Shown here: in pieces, positions 1-50,505 of the stretch | Layout: each line of letters opens with the position of its first letter | Numbering within the stretch: the first letter of the stretch is position 1 | Source of the DNA: Escherichia phage tuinn | Sequence record: MN850606.1 | Reading direction: 5' to 3' (one strand) | DNA: 50,505 nucleotides | Made by a program: the position numbers and the translations under genes | Notes under the pieces: model-generated | What the model was told of the DNA's origin: nothing | The model's input: only the letters and a program-made list of their open reading frames with translations | Database searches by the model: none

Positions 1-332
1 GCGGGAAGTATGAGCCAGCCGGAATTGTCCATAAAGGTGAATTTGTCATGACGAAGGAGGCGACGCAGCGTATCGGGGTAGGAAACTTGTACCGCATGAT
101 GCGAGGCTATGCTAACGGCGGCGTTGTTGGTAGTTCCGGCTATACTGGCGGTGGCGCTGTAACTGGTGGAGCACCTCAATTTAACATCGGCGGGATTGAT
201 GTTAGCATCACTAACGGAAACGATCCGAAGGGCATCGAAACTGGTGTTAAGATGATCTTTACTGATATGATTAAACGTTCCTGTATGCAGGGCGGCGAGG
301 TTTACGAATTTGTTATGAGCAAGCGAGGTTGA
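1..332 (+). CDS. tape measure protein, C-terminal segment (continues in frame from 48174..50505 across the window end)
   Basis: Frame open from position 1; codon phase matches the ORF leaving the window at 50505; Gly-rich C-terminus typical of lambda H-like tape measure proteins. Confidence 0.8.
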   Translation, partial: GKYEPAGIVHKGEFVMTKEATQRIGVGNLYRMMRGYANGGVVGSSGYTGGGAVTGGAPQFNIGGIDVSITNGNDPKGIETGVKMIFTDMIKRSCMQGGEVYEFVMSKRG

Positions 333-10717: not shown

Positions 10718-10742
10718 GCCCCGCATATGCGGGGCATTTTTT
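10718..10742. terminator. bidirectional terminator
   Basis: GCCCCGC-ATAT-GCGGGGC hairpin with A-run and T-run. Confidence 0.65.
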
Positions 10743-11478
10743 AGTCTAACGTGGTTGGTTTGTTTACCAGTGCCGCTACAACCGCTTTTAGCTCGTCAAT
10801 TTCTTTTCTCATCTCATCGTTTTCCGCTTTCAGTTTCTTAACGTGGTGAATCAGTGGAACAGTGAGGCGGTCATACATAACGCCTTCCGCCACCATGCCA
10901 TTACTTGAAGCAATGGCAGGATCTTCTCCTTCTTGCAGCGGTCGCCAGTGAACGTACTCCGGCGCAATTTGTCCAACCTATTCCGCGATTAGCCCGTACC
11001 ATCCCCAATCTTTACGGTCGCTTTCACAAGTTGACCGATACCAAACAGGACGCATTTCAAGCATCAGATCCGCATATTCATCAATAACCGATTCTACGCT
11101 GCTCTTATAACGAGAAGAGGAAGTGGAGCGTAAAACTTGCGACACTCCAGCATTTGGATCAAGCCATAAGTTTGCTGATTGAGCGGTTGTGTTAATATTA
11201 AATAAATAAAATGCATCGTTACCAGTTAGGGGGTAAAAACTCCCACTATACCTTCCGCTATCCAACTCGGATGATAGATCAGTTTGTTTTAGATACGGTT
11301 TCAACTTATTGTCAACATCAGCAGTTGATGCTTTTCCTGCAACATCCTGTTTTAGTGTCGAAACGTCATTTTTCAGCTTCGTTATATCACCAGGAATAGT
11401 AGCAACATCCTGTTTTAGTGTTGAAACGTCATTTTTCAGCTTCGTTATATCACTAGGTATAACAGTGACTGTAGCCAT
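10741..11478 (-). CDS. tail fibre protein with C-terminal intramolecular chaperone (peptidase S74-like) domain, interrupted by in-frame TAG at 10978..10980
   Basis: Called ORF ends ..DWGWYGLIAE*; same frame continues VGQIAPEYV..LKAENDEMRKEIDELKAVVAALV to TAA at 10741, matching the S74 chaperone consensus. Confidence 0.6.
11344..11469 (-). repeat. tandem 63-bp repeat (2 units) inside tail fibre gene
   Basis: Units start 11344 and 11407; encode duplicated peptide I-P-x-DITKLKNDVSTLKQDVA. Confidence 0.7.
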
Positions 11479-11490
11479 TTTCCTAACTCC

Positions 11491-11769
11491 TTAAGCCCAT
11501 TCTCTAATAGGCTGATCTAACTCAACCACGTATCCATTAAAAATTACGGCATCAAACTTATCATCAATGATTCGCACATTAACGAAATAGCCGTCGTTCT
11601 TTCGCGCAATCTCCTCGCCATCGTCAGATCGTGCAATTACTGTATAAGTATTGCCGATTACATCGAGCAGGATTGCATCCTGAATGGATTCGTTATCATC
11701 CCAATTAATTTTTCCTAAAAAGGCCGAAAACTCGGCCTTGTCTGAAAATTTTAATGTTAAATCACGCAT
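11491..11769 (-). CDS. hypothetical protein between tail fibre genes
   Basis: ATG 11769 overlaps upstream stop; no motif. Confidence 0.4.
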   Translation of the reverse strand: MRDLTLKFSDKAEFSAFLGKINWDDNESIQDAILLDVIGNTYTVIARSDDGEEIARKNDGYFVNVRIIDDKFDAVIFNGYVVELDQPIREWA

Positions 11770-13745
11770 TAAACAATTTCCCCCAATTGATGATCTGTTA
11801 GTGCCTTGTGCCATATACGGAAGTTTCTAACGTGCCCGAAAAGATGACGTTCTCCAGTAGTTGTTTGTCCGCCAATCCTTATAGTAGCCGTTGATACTAT
11901 ATATCTCCATTCCGTTTTTGTTTCGCTTGATATTCTGGCATTACTTACACAACAAGTATTGTAATCACTCTTTACTCTCATTCCTATGATCATCTTTTTT
12001 AGTTTCGCATTCTCGTTAACCCTTCTGTTTGATTTACCTATATCGCAATAAGGGAATCCATCATTATCGCCCTTGGCAGATCCGAAAGCAAGAATAATTG
12101 CCGCACCAGATTGATGACCTCCAGTATCAAAAACACGAGGCGCAGCATTTGGCGTCATACTCCAGTTTTTATTAGCTTCCACAAGTAATGTAAACGGCAA
12201 ATTGTAAAGGTTGTTTTTTATTGGTAATGTAACCATATCGCTTGCCCGTGTTACTGGAGTCTCTTCTGTAATAATAAAGGATGAAGCGCACGCCCCACCT
12301 TCAACTTGAGGTGTCGCAATATAAATATAATCATCCGCGCCAGTGCCCACTCCTTTTGCTGGGGCATAATGAACCATTCCACCTATCATATTTTCTGTAT
12401 CAAGTGCCTTAATTGTCGCCTCAAAAAAGATCCATTTGCTTGCTTCATCTTTAACAGCCCTTGCAGTAATACGATTTGCAGCGACGCCAGTTTTTTCAAT
12501 TGATAAATCTGTCAGATTTACGTAAGCATCACCCAAAAATGCATAAGCAGATCCATCGTAGTTTTCAAATCGTAATCGGCATCTTAAATTTGGAGTCCCA
12601 CTTTGCGCCCTGCATGATATGGTTACATACTTTTCATTTCCTGTTACATCAAAACCTCTACTGCCGGAAACGGTTACTATGTTAATCGATGAAGTTTGCC
12701 CTACCATTTCTGGTTTTAATGTAAATTTTGCGTACTGGAATCCGAAATTATCCACACCTGATCTATCTAAGATCATATTTGGTGACTTGTTCCATTTTGA
12801 AGGATTGACGCTATTTATAAGAAGGTTTGCTCTTTGCCCCTCAATGAGCAGACCATCCTTTTCAAATCTAGGTTCATCAATAGCAGCATTAGTAAGCACC
12901 CCAGACTTATTAATGTAAGTAGCGGTTGATGCGCGTTTAAACTTAACAATCTTGTCACCTGGCATCGTGATCTCATCGTCACCTATAACAATCTTTTTAT
13001 ATGACGGAGAGAATCCGGTGATCATATCCAGGGAATCATTAAACGGTATCCACACGTCCGGCAACGGTTGCAATAAATCTTTGTAAGGTTCTGCGGCCTG
13101 CTTTGCGTATTCCTCCGCTTGATCTCGCGCACTTTCAGCTCCTGCCTTTGCAGTGTTCGCAGCGTCACGCGCGGATTCAGCACCAGACTTTGCTGCTTCA
13201 GCGCCAGTCTTTGCAGTGTTTGCAGCGTCGCGCGCGGATTCAGCGGCAGCCTTTGCAGTGTCAGCACCTTTCTTGCTATTCTCTGCATTTGTTGCGCTTT
13301 TCTTTGCGTTATTCTCGCTAGTTTTAGCTGCCTTCTGGCTTGCTGCGGCTGCGTCAGCATTTGTCTTTACGTCTTCCTGGATCTTCTGTAGCTTATCCCA
13401 ATCAAAATCCTTGATGATCTCAATAAATCCAGCAAACTCCGATTCCTTCCCCTGGTAATAACGCAACGTTTCCGCTACGTCTTGCGCAAGACCGTCAACA
13501 GTTAACGAGTCATGAAGCAAGATCAGGTAATTTGTCTTCTGTACTACCGCGCCGCCAGTAGTAATTGCGCGAATGCTTGTATCGCTAATCACTTCTGTAA
13601 TCACAGCAGCTTGCAAAGGTTGAGCAAGAAAGAAAATAGTTGCACCTGGGCGAATCAAGGTTAATTGCTCACGCCATTTTGTACCGTAACCAGTTACATA
13701 ACCTTGCGCGTCCATAGACGCTTGGCCTTGTCTGTAAATCGCCAT
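11769..13745 (-). CDS. side tail fibre protein (lambda Stf-like N-terminus, Ala-rich repeats, C-terminal receptor-binding domain)
   Basis: AGGAGG RBS before ATG 13745; Ala/Ser/Lys-rich repeats; C-terminal domain, possibly jellyroll-type. Confidence 0.75.
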   Translation of the reverse strand: MAIYRQGQASMDAQGYVTGYGTKWREQLTLIRPGATIFFLAQPLQAAVITEVISDTSIRAITTGGAVVQKTNYLILLHDSLTVDGLAQDVAETLRYYQGKESEFAGFIEIIKDFDWDKLQKIQEDVKTNADAAAASQKAAKTSENNAKKSATNAENSKKGADTAKAAAESARDAANTAKTGAEAAKSGAESARDAANTAKAGAESARDQAEEYAKQAAEPYKDLLQPLPDVWIPFNDSLDMITGFSPSYKKIVIGDDEITMPGDKIVKFKRASTATYINKSGVLTNAAIDEPRFEKDGLLIEGQRANLLINSVNPSKWNKSPNMILDRSGVDNFGFQYAKFTLKPEMVGQTSSINIVTVSGSRGFDVTGNEKYVTISCRAQSGTPNLRCRLRFENYDGSAYAFLGDAYVNLTDLSIEKTGVAANRITARAVKDEASKWIFFEATIKALDTENMIGGMVHYAPAKGVGTGADDYIYIATPQVEGGACASSFIITEETPVTRASDMVTLPIKNNLYNLPFTLLVEANKNWSMTPNAAPRVFDTGGHQSGAAIILAFGSAKGDNDGFPYCDIGKSNRRVNENAKLKKMIIGMRVKSDYNTCCVSNARISSETKTEWRYIVSTATIRIGGQTTTGERHLFGHVRNFRIWHKALTDHQLGEIV

Positions 13746-31302: not shown

Positions 31303-31486
31303 GCGCGTCAAGCACAGGTTTACTGATAACCACGGCGACGCGATTGATGTATACAAGTTTGGCGATCGAGTTTTTATTGATGGCACGTTTGAAGGTGGGC
31401 GTAGGCCGGATTTTAGGTCGATACTTACCGTTGACCAAGTGCGCAAGCTGGCAGATAAGTTAAATGATCTGGCAGATGAAATATAA
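31289..31486 (+). CDS. hypothetical protein
   Basis: 65-aa ORF. Confidence 0.35.
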   Translation: MKTNKRVKHRFTDNHGDAIDVYKFGDRVFIDGTFEGGRRPDFRSILTVDQVRKLADKLNDLADEI

Positions 31487-31521: not shown

Positions 31522-32065
31522 ATGAAAAAAATACACTTTCGAACTATGGGGCAAGAAGTACGAATTAATCACCAGCAAGCGGATTGTTATCGTTGACCTA
31601 GACGGCACACTATCTGACGGATCGCATCGTTTGCATTTGCTGCCAACTGAAAACTTGCACCTTACGGAGTTGTGGAGCGAATTTAACAGGGCCGCCGCCG
31701 GAGATTCACCGATTAAAAGCACGATCGCGGTTATTAACGGTTTGTGGGTGTCGGGATTTGCCATCGTCATCTTGACCGGACGCAGCGACGAAGTGCGCTA
31801 TGAAACATGCAAATGGTTGAATGAGAACGGCGTGAAGTTTGACGAAATCATCATGCGCCGCCAGGAGGACAACCGAAAGGATACGGTTATTAAAGAAGAA
31901 GCCTTGCGCGCTATTGGCCTGGACAATATTGTTTGCGCCTTTGACGATTCTCCGAACGTTGTTAAGCACTTCCGCAGCCTGGGGATCACAACCTATCAGG
32001 TCACGGAATATGACAAGCCGCACGCTCACCTGCAATCTCACGGCGTGGAGGAGTTGCAGAAATGA
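31522..32065 (+). CDS. HAD-superfamily phosphatase (polynucleotide 3'-phosphatase-like); ATG at 31522 is out of frame because of an A7 tract
   Basis: HAD motifs VIVDLDGTLSDG, ILTGRSD, FDDSPN in frame entered at 31526; removing one A from 31525..31531 gives ATG-initiated MKKYTFELWGKKYEL.. Confidence 0.55.
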
Positions 32066-48173: not shown

Positions 48174-50505
48174 ATGGCTGAAAAATACGCTGGCCTAACG
48201 CTAGGCGTTGACGTGTCGCAGGTCAACAATGCTGTTAAATCATTGCAGCAATTCAAGAAGGCAAACGACGACGCAAAAAAAAGCGTTAATGAATTTGTTG
48301 ATTCTGAGGTTGTGGCCCGACAGCAAGCAAAACAGCTTGCCGAAGAACTGGCGCGCCAGAAAGCAGAATTTAAGAAAATCCAGGAGTCAATTGATCCCAC
48401 TGCATCAAAGATGGATAAGCTGCGAAAGGCAGCGACACAGCTTGATGCGCTATGGAAAAAGGGCGTTGTTCCTGATCAGACTTTTTTTGAGCTTGGGGCA
48501 ATTCTTGAGACGCAGCAAAACAAGCTGATCGCAACCAAAAAAGCGATGACAGAGGAAGGCCGCGCGGCGCTTGAGGAATCAAAGAACAAGGCGCGTGCAG
48601 CGGAAGAGGCTAAAAAATTCGTCCAGGCTTTGCGTGAGCAGGAAGAAGCAGCAGGAAAAAGCAAGTCTGAATTGCTGGAAATGAAAGCGGCACAGCTTGG
48701 AGTTAGCCAGGAGGCAGCACCTTACATCGCAAGGCTGAAAGAGCAGGAAAAGCAGATCCAGAAACTTGGGATTTCTACAGGCCAATACAAACAAGCAATG
48801 GCGCAATTGCCAATGCAGATCACAGACGTGGTGACTTCACTTGCTTCTGGTATGCCAGTTTGGTTGGTCGCAGTCCAGCAGGGTGGACAGATCAAGGATT
48901 CTTTTGGTGGTGCATCCAATGCTTTAAAAGCGTTGCTATCTTTCCTGAATCCGGTAAACGTGGCGTTTGGCTTGCTTTCCGGCACGCTGGCAATTGCTGC
49001 ATATAATGCCTACAAAGCACAGACAGAGCTTGAGGCAATTAAAAAAACCGTTCAGGAAACAACTGGCTTGAGTGGTGAGTTTGCCGAAAAGATTGCTATA
49101 GGAATCCAGGAGCTTTCCGACAAGACAGGCGAAAGCGCCGAAGATCTGGCAAAGGCTTACATAACAACGAAAGACGGCGCGAGCGAGGCGATTAAAAAAC
49201 TGGTTGACGTTGGAATGACTTATGATGACGCAAAAAAGAAAGTCAACGAGTACAAGGGCGCGTCTAGCTTTGTCAGCTTGAATAACGAAATTGCAAACCA
49301 CAAAAACAAAGTCCTTGAGTTGGGCGAGTCGTGGTATGAAGTTTTGAAAGCTAAGCGTGATTACGCTTCCCCGTCCGGCGGCCTGTTAGGTAAAGAGCTT
49401 GGCTATGTTAATCCTATGCTTAAGTTTGCACTTAACACTTATGAAGACATTGGAAAGGTCGTAAAAGATGCGAATAAGGACATGGCGGAACGAGCGGAGC
49501 GAATCGACAAAGAAAACCTGGCCTTAAACAGAGTGCGCGCAGCACAGGAGGCTTTAAACAAAGCCATTGAGGATCAGAAAAATGTGGCGCGTTCGGCTGA
49601 TGAAGAACTGAAAAAGCGCGCGGCTGAAAACGTGGAGTTTAGGCGCAAAGAGCTTGAGGAAATCAAGAAGCAGGAGCAGAAAAAGAAAGAGGCTAAAGGG
49701 GGAATAGTTCGCGGCCCTACTGAGCAGCTTGATAAAGAGTTGTACGTTTTAAAGGCGCAACTGGAAACTCTTAAAGAGCATCGCACTGTTAACGATGTTA
49801 TTTCTCGCCAGCGTAAATCTTTATGGAGCATCGAAAAGCAGATCGAGATCCTGGAGAATGCGCAGAGCAAGCGTAAATTGACCGGAGCGGAACAGGCGCT
49901 ACTAAACGAGCAAAAGGCCGTTCTTGAAATGGCAAGACAAAAAGCTGAGCTAGGGGATCAGATTGTTTTGCAGGAGCGCAAAAACAAGCTGGAGCAAGAT
50001 AGTCTTAAGTTTATCCGTGAAACTGAGGCTGCTATTGATGCGATTGGCCTTAAGCAACTTGGATACACTGAAAAGCAGATCGAGCGTGAGCTAGAGTTAC
50101 GCAAGCTGCGCACCGACTACGAGGCGCAAGGCGGAAGCGTTAGCGACGAAGTTTTTCAGCAAATGGAGACGAAACTTAAGCTGTATTACCAGGCACAAGA
50201 CGAGGCGCAAGGCAACTGGTTAGCCGGAGCAAAGAACGCATGGGAGCTATTCGCGGAAGATGCAAACAATGCCTATGGCAATGTTCAGCAGATCGCAAGC
50301 GAGGCGTTAAACGGCCTTACAAACCAATTAGCGAATTTTATCGCTACTGGCAAGGCAAACTTTAAAGACTTCTCGACGGCTATCATCAAAATGATTATCC
50401 AGATGATCACGAAAATGGTCGTCTTTAATGCGTTATCTGGCCTGATGGGTGGTCAAACCTGGACGATGGGGAGCTTGCTTAAGAATATTGGCGGATTTGC
50501 TGGCG
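48174..50505 (+). CDS. tape measure protein, N-terminal segment (runs off window end, continues at 1..332)
   Basis: GGAGG RBS; long coiled-coil ORF with no stop in window; phase matches 1..332. Confidence 0.8.
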   Translation, partial: MAEKYAGLTLGVDVSQVNNAVKSLQQFKKANDDAKKSVNEFVDSEVVARQQAKQLAEELARQKAEFKKIQESIDPTASKMDKLRKAATQLDALWKKGVVPDQTFFELGAILETQQNKLIATKKAMTEEGRAALEESKNKARAAEEAKKFVQALREQEEAAGKSKSELLEMKAAQLGVSQEAAPYIARLKEQEKQIQKLGISTGQYKQAMAQLPMQITDVVTSLASGMPVWLVAVQQGGQIKDSFGGASNALKALLSFLNPVNVAFGLLSGTLAIAAYNAYKAQTELEAIKKTVQETTGLSGEFAEKIAIGIQELSDKTGESAEDLAKAYITTKDGASEAIKKLVDVGMTYDDAKKKVNEYKGASSFVSLNNEIANHKNKVLELGESWYEVLKAKRDYASPSGGLLGKELGYVNPMLKFALNTYEDIGKVVKDANKDMAERAERIDKENLALNRVRAAQEALNKAIEDQKNVARSADEELKKRAAENVEFRRKELEEIKKQEQKKKEAKGGIVRGPTEQLDKELYVLKAQLETLKEHRTVNDVISRQRKSLWSIEKQIEILENAQSKRKLTGAEQALLNEQKAVLEMARQKAELGDQIVLQERKNKLEQDSLKFIRETEAAIDAIGLKQLGYTEKQIERELELRKLRTDYEAQGGSVSDEVFQQMETKLKLYYQAQDEAQGNWLAGAKNAWELFAEDANNAYGNVQQIASEALNGLTNQLANFIATGKANFKDFSTAIIKMIIQMITKMVVFNALSGLMGGQTWTMGSLLKNIGGFAG

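Follow-up and report, generated by a model that had tools for sequence, protein, structure and literature searches.

The third gene of the lateral-fibre cassette of this phage is interrupted by an in-frame TAG (10978..10980, minus strand), which is probably a real and recent nonsense mutation, private to this genome (GAG>TAG, E167*), that knocks out an accessory fibre component whose loss is tolerated. The same gene is broken, by other lesions, in many of the related phages, and the best reading of this pattern, by analogy with the stf gene of lambda, is that cultured phages repeatedly lose a fibre component which they can do without.

The window, by which we mean the whole stretch of DNA that was analysed (50,505 nucleotides), holds an entire phage genome of 50.5 kb, in circularly permuted form, that belongs to the genus Warwickvirus (Drexlerviridae, Tempevirinae), a group of T1-like phages of E. 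coli. Its first half is 99.4% identical to the genomes of phages Tuinin, MartyMcPhage and ExeQuayColi, and the phage collection that was searched contains no record identical to it. The tape-measure gene spans the two ends of the window (1-332 and 48174-50505), which indicates that the permutation was opened inside a gene.

The interrupted frame and its private stop codon

On the minus strand, positions 10741..11478 form a single frame of 245 codons, which is broken by the TAG. From the ATG at 11478, 166 sense codons (the truncated ORF, 10981..11478, minus strand) encode the coiled coil at the N-terminus, the short tip that follows it and 47 residues at the start of a chaperone domain. The TAG is followed by 78 further sense codons that are left untranslated (10744..10977, minus strand), corresponding to the remainder of the chaperone domain including its long C-terminal helix, and then by the original TAA (10741..10743, minus strand), which has the same end position in the intact relatives. 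The sequence-only reading of this DNA had pointed out the TAG and the open continuation of the frame; its coordinates are borne out and the two peptide strings that it quoted are exact. It had placed the lesion inside a tail fibre gene, which turns out to be incorrect: the frame is a stand-alone ORF of 245 codons, located downstream of the real tail-fibre gene of about 2 kb.

The probability that a stretch of 78 codons remains open by chance is approximately (61/64)^78 = 2.4%. The frame that follows the TAG is a coding remnant rather than a product of chance, since the joined protein of 245 residues aligns end to end with public full-length homologues (best E = 4e-152, 97% identity, 100% coverage). 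In the alignment of 30 alleles described below, every residue encoded by these 78 codons, with the exception of the glutamine of E170Q, is found in relatives. Translation restart after the TAG was considered and rejected: the first in-frame start occurs at about codon 195 (ORF 10741..10896) and would give only the last 51 residues of the protein.

The gene was retrieved from the genomes of 29 relatives, and these copies were aligned together with that of the window (30 alleles in all). The codon that is TAG here is GAG or GAA, coding for glutamate, in all 29 relatives and also in three environmental copies (two metagenome contigs and one IMG/VR contig, of which the two complete ones are intact and the third is partial). 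None of the homologues ends at this position, so that the comparison of homologues which the sequence-only reading had suggested gave the outcome that it anticipated. Glu167 is at least 90% conserved in a set of 51 homologues that extends down to about 20% identity. The earlier proposal that the stop occupies the Gln/Glu position of an IAQEV motif was right about the motif, but the residue that is replaced is a glutamate (the second Glu of 'IAEEV') and not a glutamine.

Exactly two bases of the 738-nt gene are private, in the sense that they are absent from all 29 relatives. The first is the G>T change at 10980 that turns GAG into TAG. The second is a G>C change at 10971, 9 nt downstream of the TAG, which turns GAA into CAA and gives the substitution E170Q (10969..10971, minus strand). 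A query of 110 nt around the site returned 40 records, none of which is identical to the window, while 16 differ from it by exactly these two bases. A scan of bacterial genome contigs found no copy of the allele, and an exact search for the truncated protein of 166 residues found no entry in the public collection.

It could be imagined that the TAG is meant to be read, either because readthrough is programmed, so that two products are made, or because the codon is reassigned in an alternative code. The one observation in favour of this idea is that the frame downstream of the TAG is open and conserved. However, the stop is found in none of the 29 relatives or the three environmental copies, and the family simply has a glutamate at this position; the window contains no tRNA genes, and therefore no suppressor tRNA; and a genome-wide, ORF-by-ORF comparison with Tuinin revealed no other annotated gene split by an in-frame stop. 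We consider that readthrough or an altered code is excluded for these three reasons, the probability that we would still assign to it being negligible. Among the four explanations that the sequence-only reading had put forward, designed readthrough must therefore be abandoned, the stop being private to this genome, while a chaperone truncated by a real nonsense mutation is the one that fits best.

An error of sequencing, assembly or consensus, in which case the true codon would be GAG and the deposited sequence would have a false base at 10980, and maybe a second one at 10971, deserves more attention. The two private substitutions are just 9 nt apart, and clustered private variants can mark a locally poor consensus; moreover, the window has a second pair of private lesions near 31.5 kb, separated by 40 nt, one of which is an additional A in a homopolymer (A7). 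On the other hand, errors of the substitution type are rare in a finished consensus, and the differences between the window and Tuinin are ordinary and symmetric (266 transitions, 89 GC>TA changes and 75 in the reverse direction), and thus give no indication of general damage or of hypermutation. Furthermore, substitution-type stops in this same gene have been deposited by five independent laboratories, so that a true lesion is to be expected here. We think that an error is unlikely, and that the TAG is probably genuine. An excess of GC>TA changes, which came out of a scan of private variants over 10 kb against five relatives, was discarded because the 18 'private' sites of that scan include variants that are shared outside the panel.

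The two lesions near 31.5 kb are the following. At 31484..31486 (plus strand), a private G>T change creates a TAA from a GAA codon in a hypothetical ORF of 73 residues; the stop comes eight codons early, and 65 residues are left here. Then, 40 nt further downstream, a run of seven A (31525..31531, within 31522-31531, plus strand) directly follows the ATG of a polynucleotide kinase/phosphatase gene; the run of Tuinin is shorter by one A. Owing to the additional A, the ATG is out of frame with the body of the gene: reading from it ends after 24 codons, and the body has its first in-frame start past the DxDGT motif. This variant of the A run is either a second knockout of an accessory gene or a homopolymer sequencing error. 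Both variants are absent from 60 of 60 related records. They could mean that the sequenced stock had several lesions in accessory genes, or that the consensus is locally imperfect, and they slightly raise the chance that the quality of the consensus is imperfect.

The chaperone domain and the fibre cassette

The protein is organised as an N-terminal region that resembles a trimeric coiled coil, a short tip which is poorly modelled, and, from residue 120, a C-terminal intramolecular chaperone of the self-cleaving type. The Pfam family Peptidase_S74 (PF13884) matches the joined protein over residues 120-176 with a score slightly below its curated cut-off (21.8 versus 22.0 bits; E = 2.4e-4), and precomputed PF13884 matches are present on many homologues. 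The truncated ORF taken alone gives no match to PF13884. The match thus spans the stop and is obtained with the joined halves only, in agreement with the earlier claim that the TAG splits an intramolecular chaperone domain of the S74 type. The profile of the family matches the ICA domain of MyRF (7DC3) and the distal fibre of phage S16 (6F45). A search of the PDB with the single sequence returned coiled-coil matches only (P22 gp26 and Lpp) and missed the chaperone domain.

An AlphaFold model was made for a protein that is 97% identical to the joined protein (P0001). The pLDDT of this model averages about 90 for residues 130-240 and drops to about 78 for residues 121-130, and its best match according to Foldseek is 7DC3 (E = 2.7e-5, probability 1.0), followed by 3GW6 and 3GUD. 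The N-terminal part is modelled as two helices (residues 9-47 and 52-65). The stop falls within the helix 165-171; what is lost past it is the rest of this helix, the strands 176-180 and 195-200 and the long helix 206-238, a region modelled with a pLDDT of about 90. The TAG takes away 78 of the approximately 125 residues of the domain, that is about two thirds, and the domain is not complete in one frame here. The long C-terminal helix that is lost (206-238) should form the core of the trimer.

Ser120 and Lys125 are invariant in the 51 homologues. In pb1 of T5, the residues at the cleavage site are arranged as Thr1263/Ser1264...Lys1269 (PMC4690869). Based on the invariant residues and on this likeness, self-cleavage is predicted to occur at the bond between T119 and S120, the site extending from Ser120 (11119..11121) to Lys125 (11104..11106), that is over 11104..11121 on the minus strand. 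The proteins known to have an intramolecular chaperone (IMC or ICA) of the Peptidase_S74 family, such as the endosialidase of K1F (3GW6), the protein of GA-1 (3GUD), pb1 of the L-shaped fibre of T5 and MyRF (7DC3), have the same Thr/Ser...Lys(+5) motif and the 'GLIAEEV' motif; the predicted fold has its best matches among them (7DC3, 3GW6 and 3GUD), and the domain is likewise located at the C-terminus, after a trimeric coiled coil and a tip. There are two differences, however. The domain is carried here by a small stand-alone protein (224-245 residues, with a predicted mature part of 119 residues) instead of being at the end of a fibre or spike of 1000 residues, and a stop codon truncates that of the window, unlike the known ones, at residue 167, while its self-cleavage is a prediction.

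With PHROG profiles, the protein aligns over its whole length with approximately the final 240 positions of long tail-fibre families. Because these profiles place the entire protein at the end of long fibres, we read the gene product as a putative mini-fibre, or distal fibre piece, that would fold with the help of its own chaperone and then cut this chaperone off; judging from the family, the mature part would be 119 residues long.

The coiled coil contains two tandem copies of a 63-bp repeat (11326..11451, minus strand; 51/63 nt identical) encoding DITKLKNDVSTLKQDVA... The number of copies differs between relatives, whose genes have 675, 696 or 738 nt and code for forms of 224, 231 and 245 residues, respectively. 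The existence of these forms shows that the coiled coil is naturally polymorphic in length.

The interrupted gene is the last of the three genes of the lateral-fibre cassette, which is on the minus strand. The first gene (11769..13745, minus strand, with its ATG at 13745) encodes the large lateral tail fibre, is intact, and its product of 658 residues matches phrog_1419 ('tail protein', E = 2.6e-234) and is 99% identical over its full length to that of MartyMcPhage. Between the two, an ORF of 92 residues (11491..11769, minus strand), which is assigned to phrog_1361, is also intact, according to the profile match and to the comparison with relatives. The strong hairpin of a bidirectional intrinsic terminator, GCCCCGCATATGCGGGGC (10718..10735, both strands), is found between the mini-fibre gene and the convergent gene ssb. 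Since this terminator sits 6 nt past the original TAA, the transcription unit still runs to the ancestral end of the gene.

The same three genes occur in a prophage of E. coli (GCA_001647315.1, contig LRHQ01000038.1, positions 1-2947), where the cassette is at the end of the prophage and adjoins dinI, an integrase and a dus gene. It consists of a fibre of at least 659 residues, which runs off the end of the contig, followed by a protein of 89 residues and an S74 protein of 227 residues. The presence of the cassette in this prophage shows that it is common to temperate prophages and to virulent T1-like phages. Clusters of homologues have 650 and 2,928 member sequences.

Independent lesions of the gene in related phages

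The mini-fibre gene is broken in 12 of the 29 relatives, which makes 13 of 30 genomes (43%) when the window is counted, and these alleles result from at least 12 independent events, or about 7 solid ones if it is considered that some of the homopolymer frameshifts in relatives may be sequencing errors. Some of the lesions are substitutions: Phunderstruck has G159* (GGA>TGA), JLBYU01 has E219* (GAA>TAA), and EC195 and JLBYU07 have TAC>TAA at the same Tyr175 codon in two different haplotypes. Others are deletions of 1 nt (brachmannus, ityhuna and SECphi27), an insertion of 2 nt (JLBYU10), or, in KMB46, a gene that is 13 nt short of the 738-nt form and loses its frame near codon 26. A run of five C in the sequence coding for 'FYPL' (11229..11233, minus strand), which is in frame in the window, has six C in orkinos, JLBYU19 and AV105, and this causes a frameshift. 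All three stop codons are represented among the lesions of the gene.

The haplotype of AV105 differs from that of orkinos and JLBYU19, which suggests recurrence at the C run, either of mutation (a hotspot) or of sequencing errors. SECphi27 (LT961732.1) is a widely used laboratory phage; the deletion is located 15 codons before the end of its gene, so that the C-terminal residues are replaced, and the RefSeq copy of this gene is still labelled 'chaperone of endosialidase'.

The lesions concern this gene specifically. In each of the 25 relatives that have an annotation, the fibre gene of 2 kb is listed at its full length (1953-1995 nt), and the 92-codon ORF is annotated with 279 nt in 24 of them, the last one being KMB46, where 324 nt are annotated from an upstream start. 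When the 10-kb context was compared in the window, EC195, brachmannus and Phunderstruck, the mini-fibre gene was the sole broken one among 10-11 neighbours.

The frequency of lesions raises the question of whether the gene is simply decaying in nature, under relaxed selection, in which case the TAG would be unrelated to culture. The proportion of sequenced genomes that have a lesion (43%) is in line with this idea, as is the fact that, based on the annotations of the records, there is no clear link between broken alleles and K-12 hosts (about 7/16 for K-12-type hosts versus about 5/17 for the others). However, the dN/dS ratio of the intact alleles is 0.13-0.33. Each broken allele has a single lesion in a frame which is otherwise perfect, and nearly all lesions are singletons, whereas a long-standing decay would have produced shared or multiple lesions. 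The three environmental copies that were found point in the same direction: the two complete metagenomic ones are intact, and the partial contig has GAG/GAA at the site. The presence of a single lesion per broken allele implies that the lesions are recent, and together with the dN/dS values and the occurrence of the cassette in E. coli prophages it suggests that the mini-fibre gene is functional in nature. A decaying pseudogene is, to our mind, quite improbable.

Another possibility is that the amber codon is real but suppressed during propagation, supE (glnV44) strains such as DH5alpha, C600 or K514 being able to insert glutamine: a useful share of the protein would then be full length, with Gln167, and the gene would work. 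The stop is indeed TAG, the codon that supE reads, and some of the relatives were propagated on strains of this genotype, DH5alpha for JK16 and K514 for BEBK14. The product would have E167Q beside the existing E170Q. On the contrary, the TAA and TGA codons and the frameshifts of the relatives are beyond rescue by supE, and the fact that relatives break the gene in these ways indicates that suppression is not needed and that loss of function is tolerated. There are no tRNA genes in the window, and the conservation of Glu167 (at least 90%) suggests that a glutamine at this position may not be functional. We regard suppression as rather unlikely, and a plain loss of function, which we still favour, as probable.

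A proposed loss of a dispensable fibre component in culture

In the mechanism that we propose, the intact mini-fibre would trimerise via its C-terminal intramolecular chaperone domain, which would fold the upstream coiled coil and the tip. The protein would then cut itself between T119 and S120, and the chaperone would be released, leaving a mature fibre piece of 119 residues. When translation stops at codon 167, the product should fail to fold or to trimerise, because it lacks the end of the helix 165-171 together with both of the following strands and the long helix at the C-terminus, and the phage would presumably be deprived of this fibre component. The loss would be tolerated if the lateral fibres are accessory and the infection of laboratory hosts proceeds via the central tail tip. 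Isolation and plaque purification probably favour such a loss, or at least allow it to become fixed easily. Positive selection or easy fixation during isolation is suggested by the rate of independent single lesions, which is very high. The knockouts may have been selected on rough laboratory strains, although the annotations of the records show no clear link between broken alleles and K-12 hosts, as noted above.

This proposal is consistent with what has been described for the family. The lateral fibres of Drexlerviridae are thought to bind the O-antigen and to be dispensable on K-12 (PMC8594841), and a related fibre of Drexlerviridae is made of a coiled coil, a T5-like tip and an IMC (PMC11990801). 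The lateral fibre loci of the Drexlerviridae of the BASEL collection, as exemplified by Gp36 of JakobBernoulli, belong to the same family and occupy the same locus, with the same plan (coiled coil, T5-like tip and IMC) and the same presumed role, the recognition of the O-antigen or glycan that serves as primary receptor, which is not required on K-12 (PMC8594841, PMC11990801). However, the Warwickvirus protein is much shorter than JakobBernoulli Gp36, and it is encoded by a third gene, after that of a fibre of 658 residues and an ORF of 92 residues.

A parallel can be drawn with lambda. Laboratory lambda lost its side fibres by a frameshift, and lambda without fibres outcompetes lambda with fibres in plaque-like growth (PMC2762979). 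The frameshift in stf of lambda PaPa, compared to Ur-lambda, is likewise the knockout in culture of an accessory side fibre, the central tail tip being sufficient. The two situations differ in that lambda has a single historical frameshift in a large fibre gene, while in Warwickviruses there are at least 12 independent lesions, which affect the small third gene only, the large one being always intact.

The publications on BASEL mention one truncation of an IMC, in AidaStucki, and do not describe a recurrent pattern. In the literature that we searched, recurrent, gene-specific knockouts in cultured Warwickviruses are an undescribed pattern. It may be, and we put this forward tentatively, as a proposal that could well turn out to be wrong, that the mini-fibre gene is a 'domestication locus' of Warwickviruses: the intact mini-fibre would be a disadvantage during isolation and growth in plaques, knockouts would sweep in a few passages, and the large fibre would be kept. 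The disadvantage of having an intact mini-fibre might come from over-adsorption, from steric hindrance of the central tip, or from the triggering of a response of the host.

Taken individually, the lesion described here is an ordinary one. The appropriate annotation is that of a disrupted (pseudo)gene, and not that of two ORFs or of a candidate for readthrough. It is important to note, however, that the prediction of host range, the cocktails used in phage therapy and the catalogues of receptor-binding proteins rest on the genomes deposited for cultured phages. If, within a single genus, 40% of the genomes have recently lost a fibre component by knockout, then these genomes and the corresponding stocks misrepresent the wild virus, and if the gene is truly a domestication locus, a sizeable share of the deposited genomes misreport the receptor-binding apparatus of wild phages. 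Nearly isogenic phages with intact and broken alleles exist, and they offer a simple system to understand why an accessory piece is lost while the main fibre is kept.

Regarding the distribution of the lesions along the gene, five nonsense events arose independently, and four of them (G159*, E167* and Y175* twice) fall in codons 159-178 (10945-11004 in the window), which include the motif GWYGLIAEEVGEIAPEYVHW and are the most conserved of the domain. In a simulation, four or more of five nonsense events fell within 17 codons with p of about 0.01, or about 0.03 when only the G>T and C>A paths were allowed, which is a weak result since the comparison is post hoc. The clustering of nonsense mutations at codons 159-175 might mean that one truncated product is preferred, a weaker addition to the proposal above. 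The same codons (159-178) are rich in codons that are one G>T step away from a stop, and they also contain two private missense changes, E170Q in the window and W178C in MartyMcPhage.
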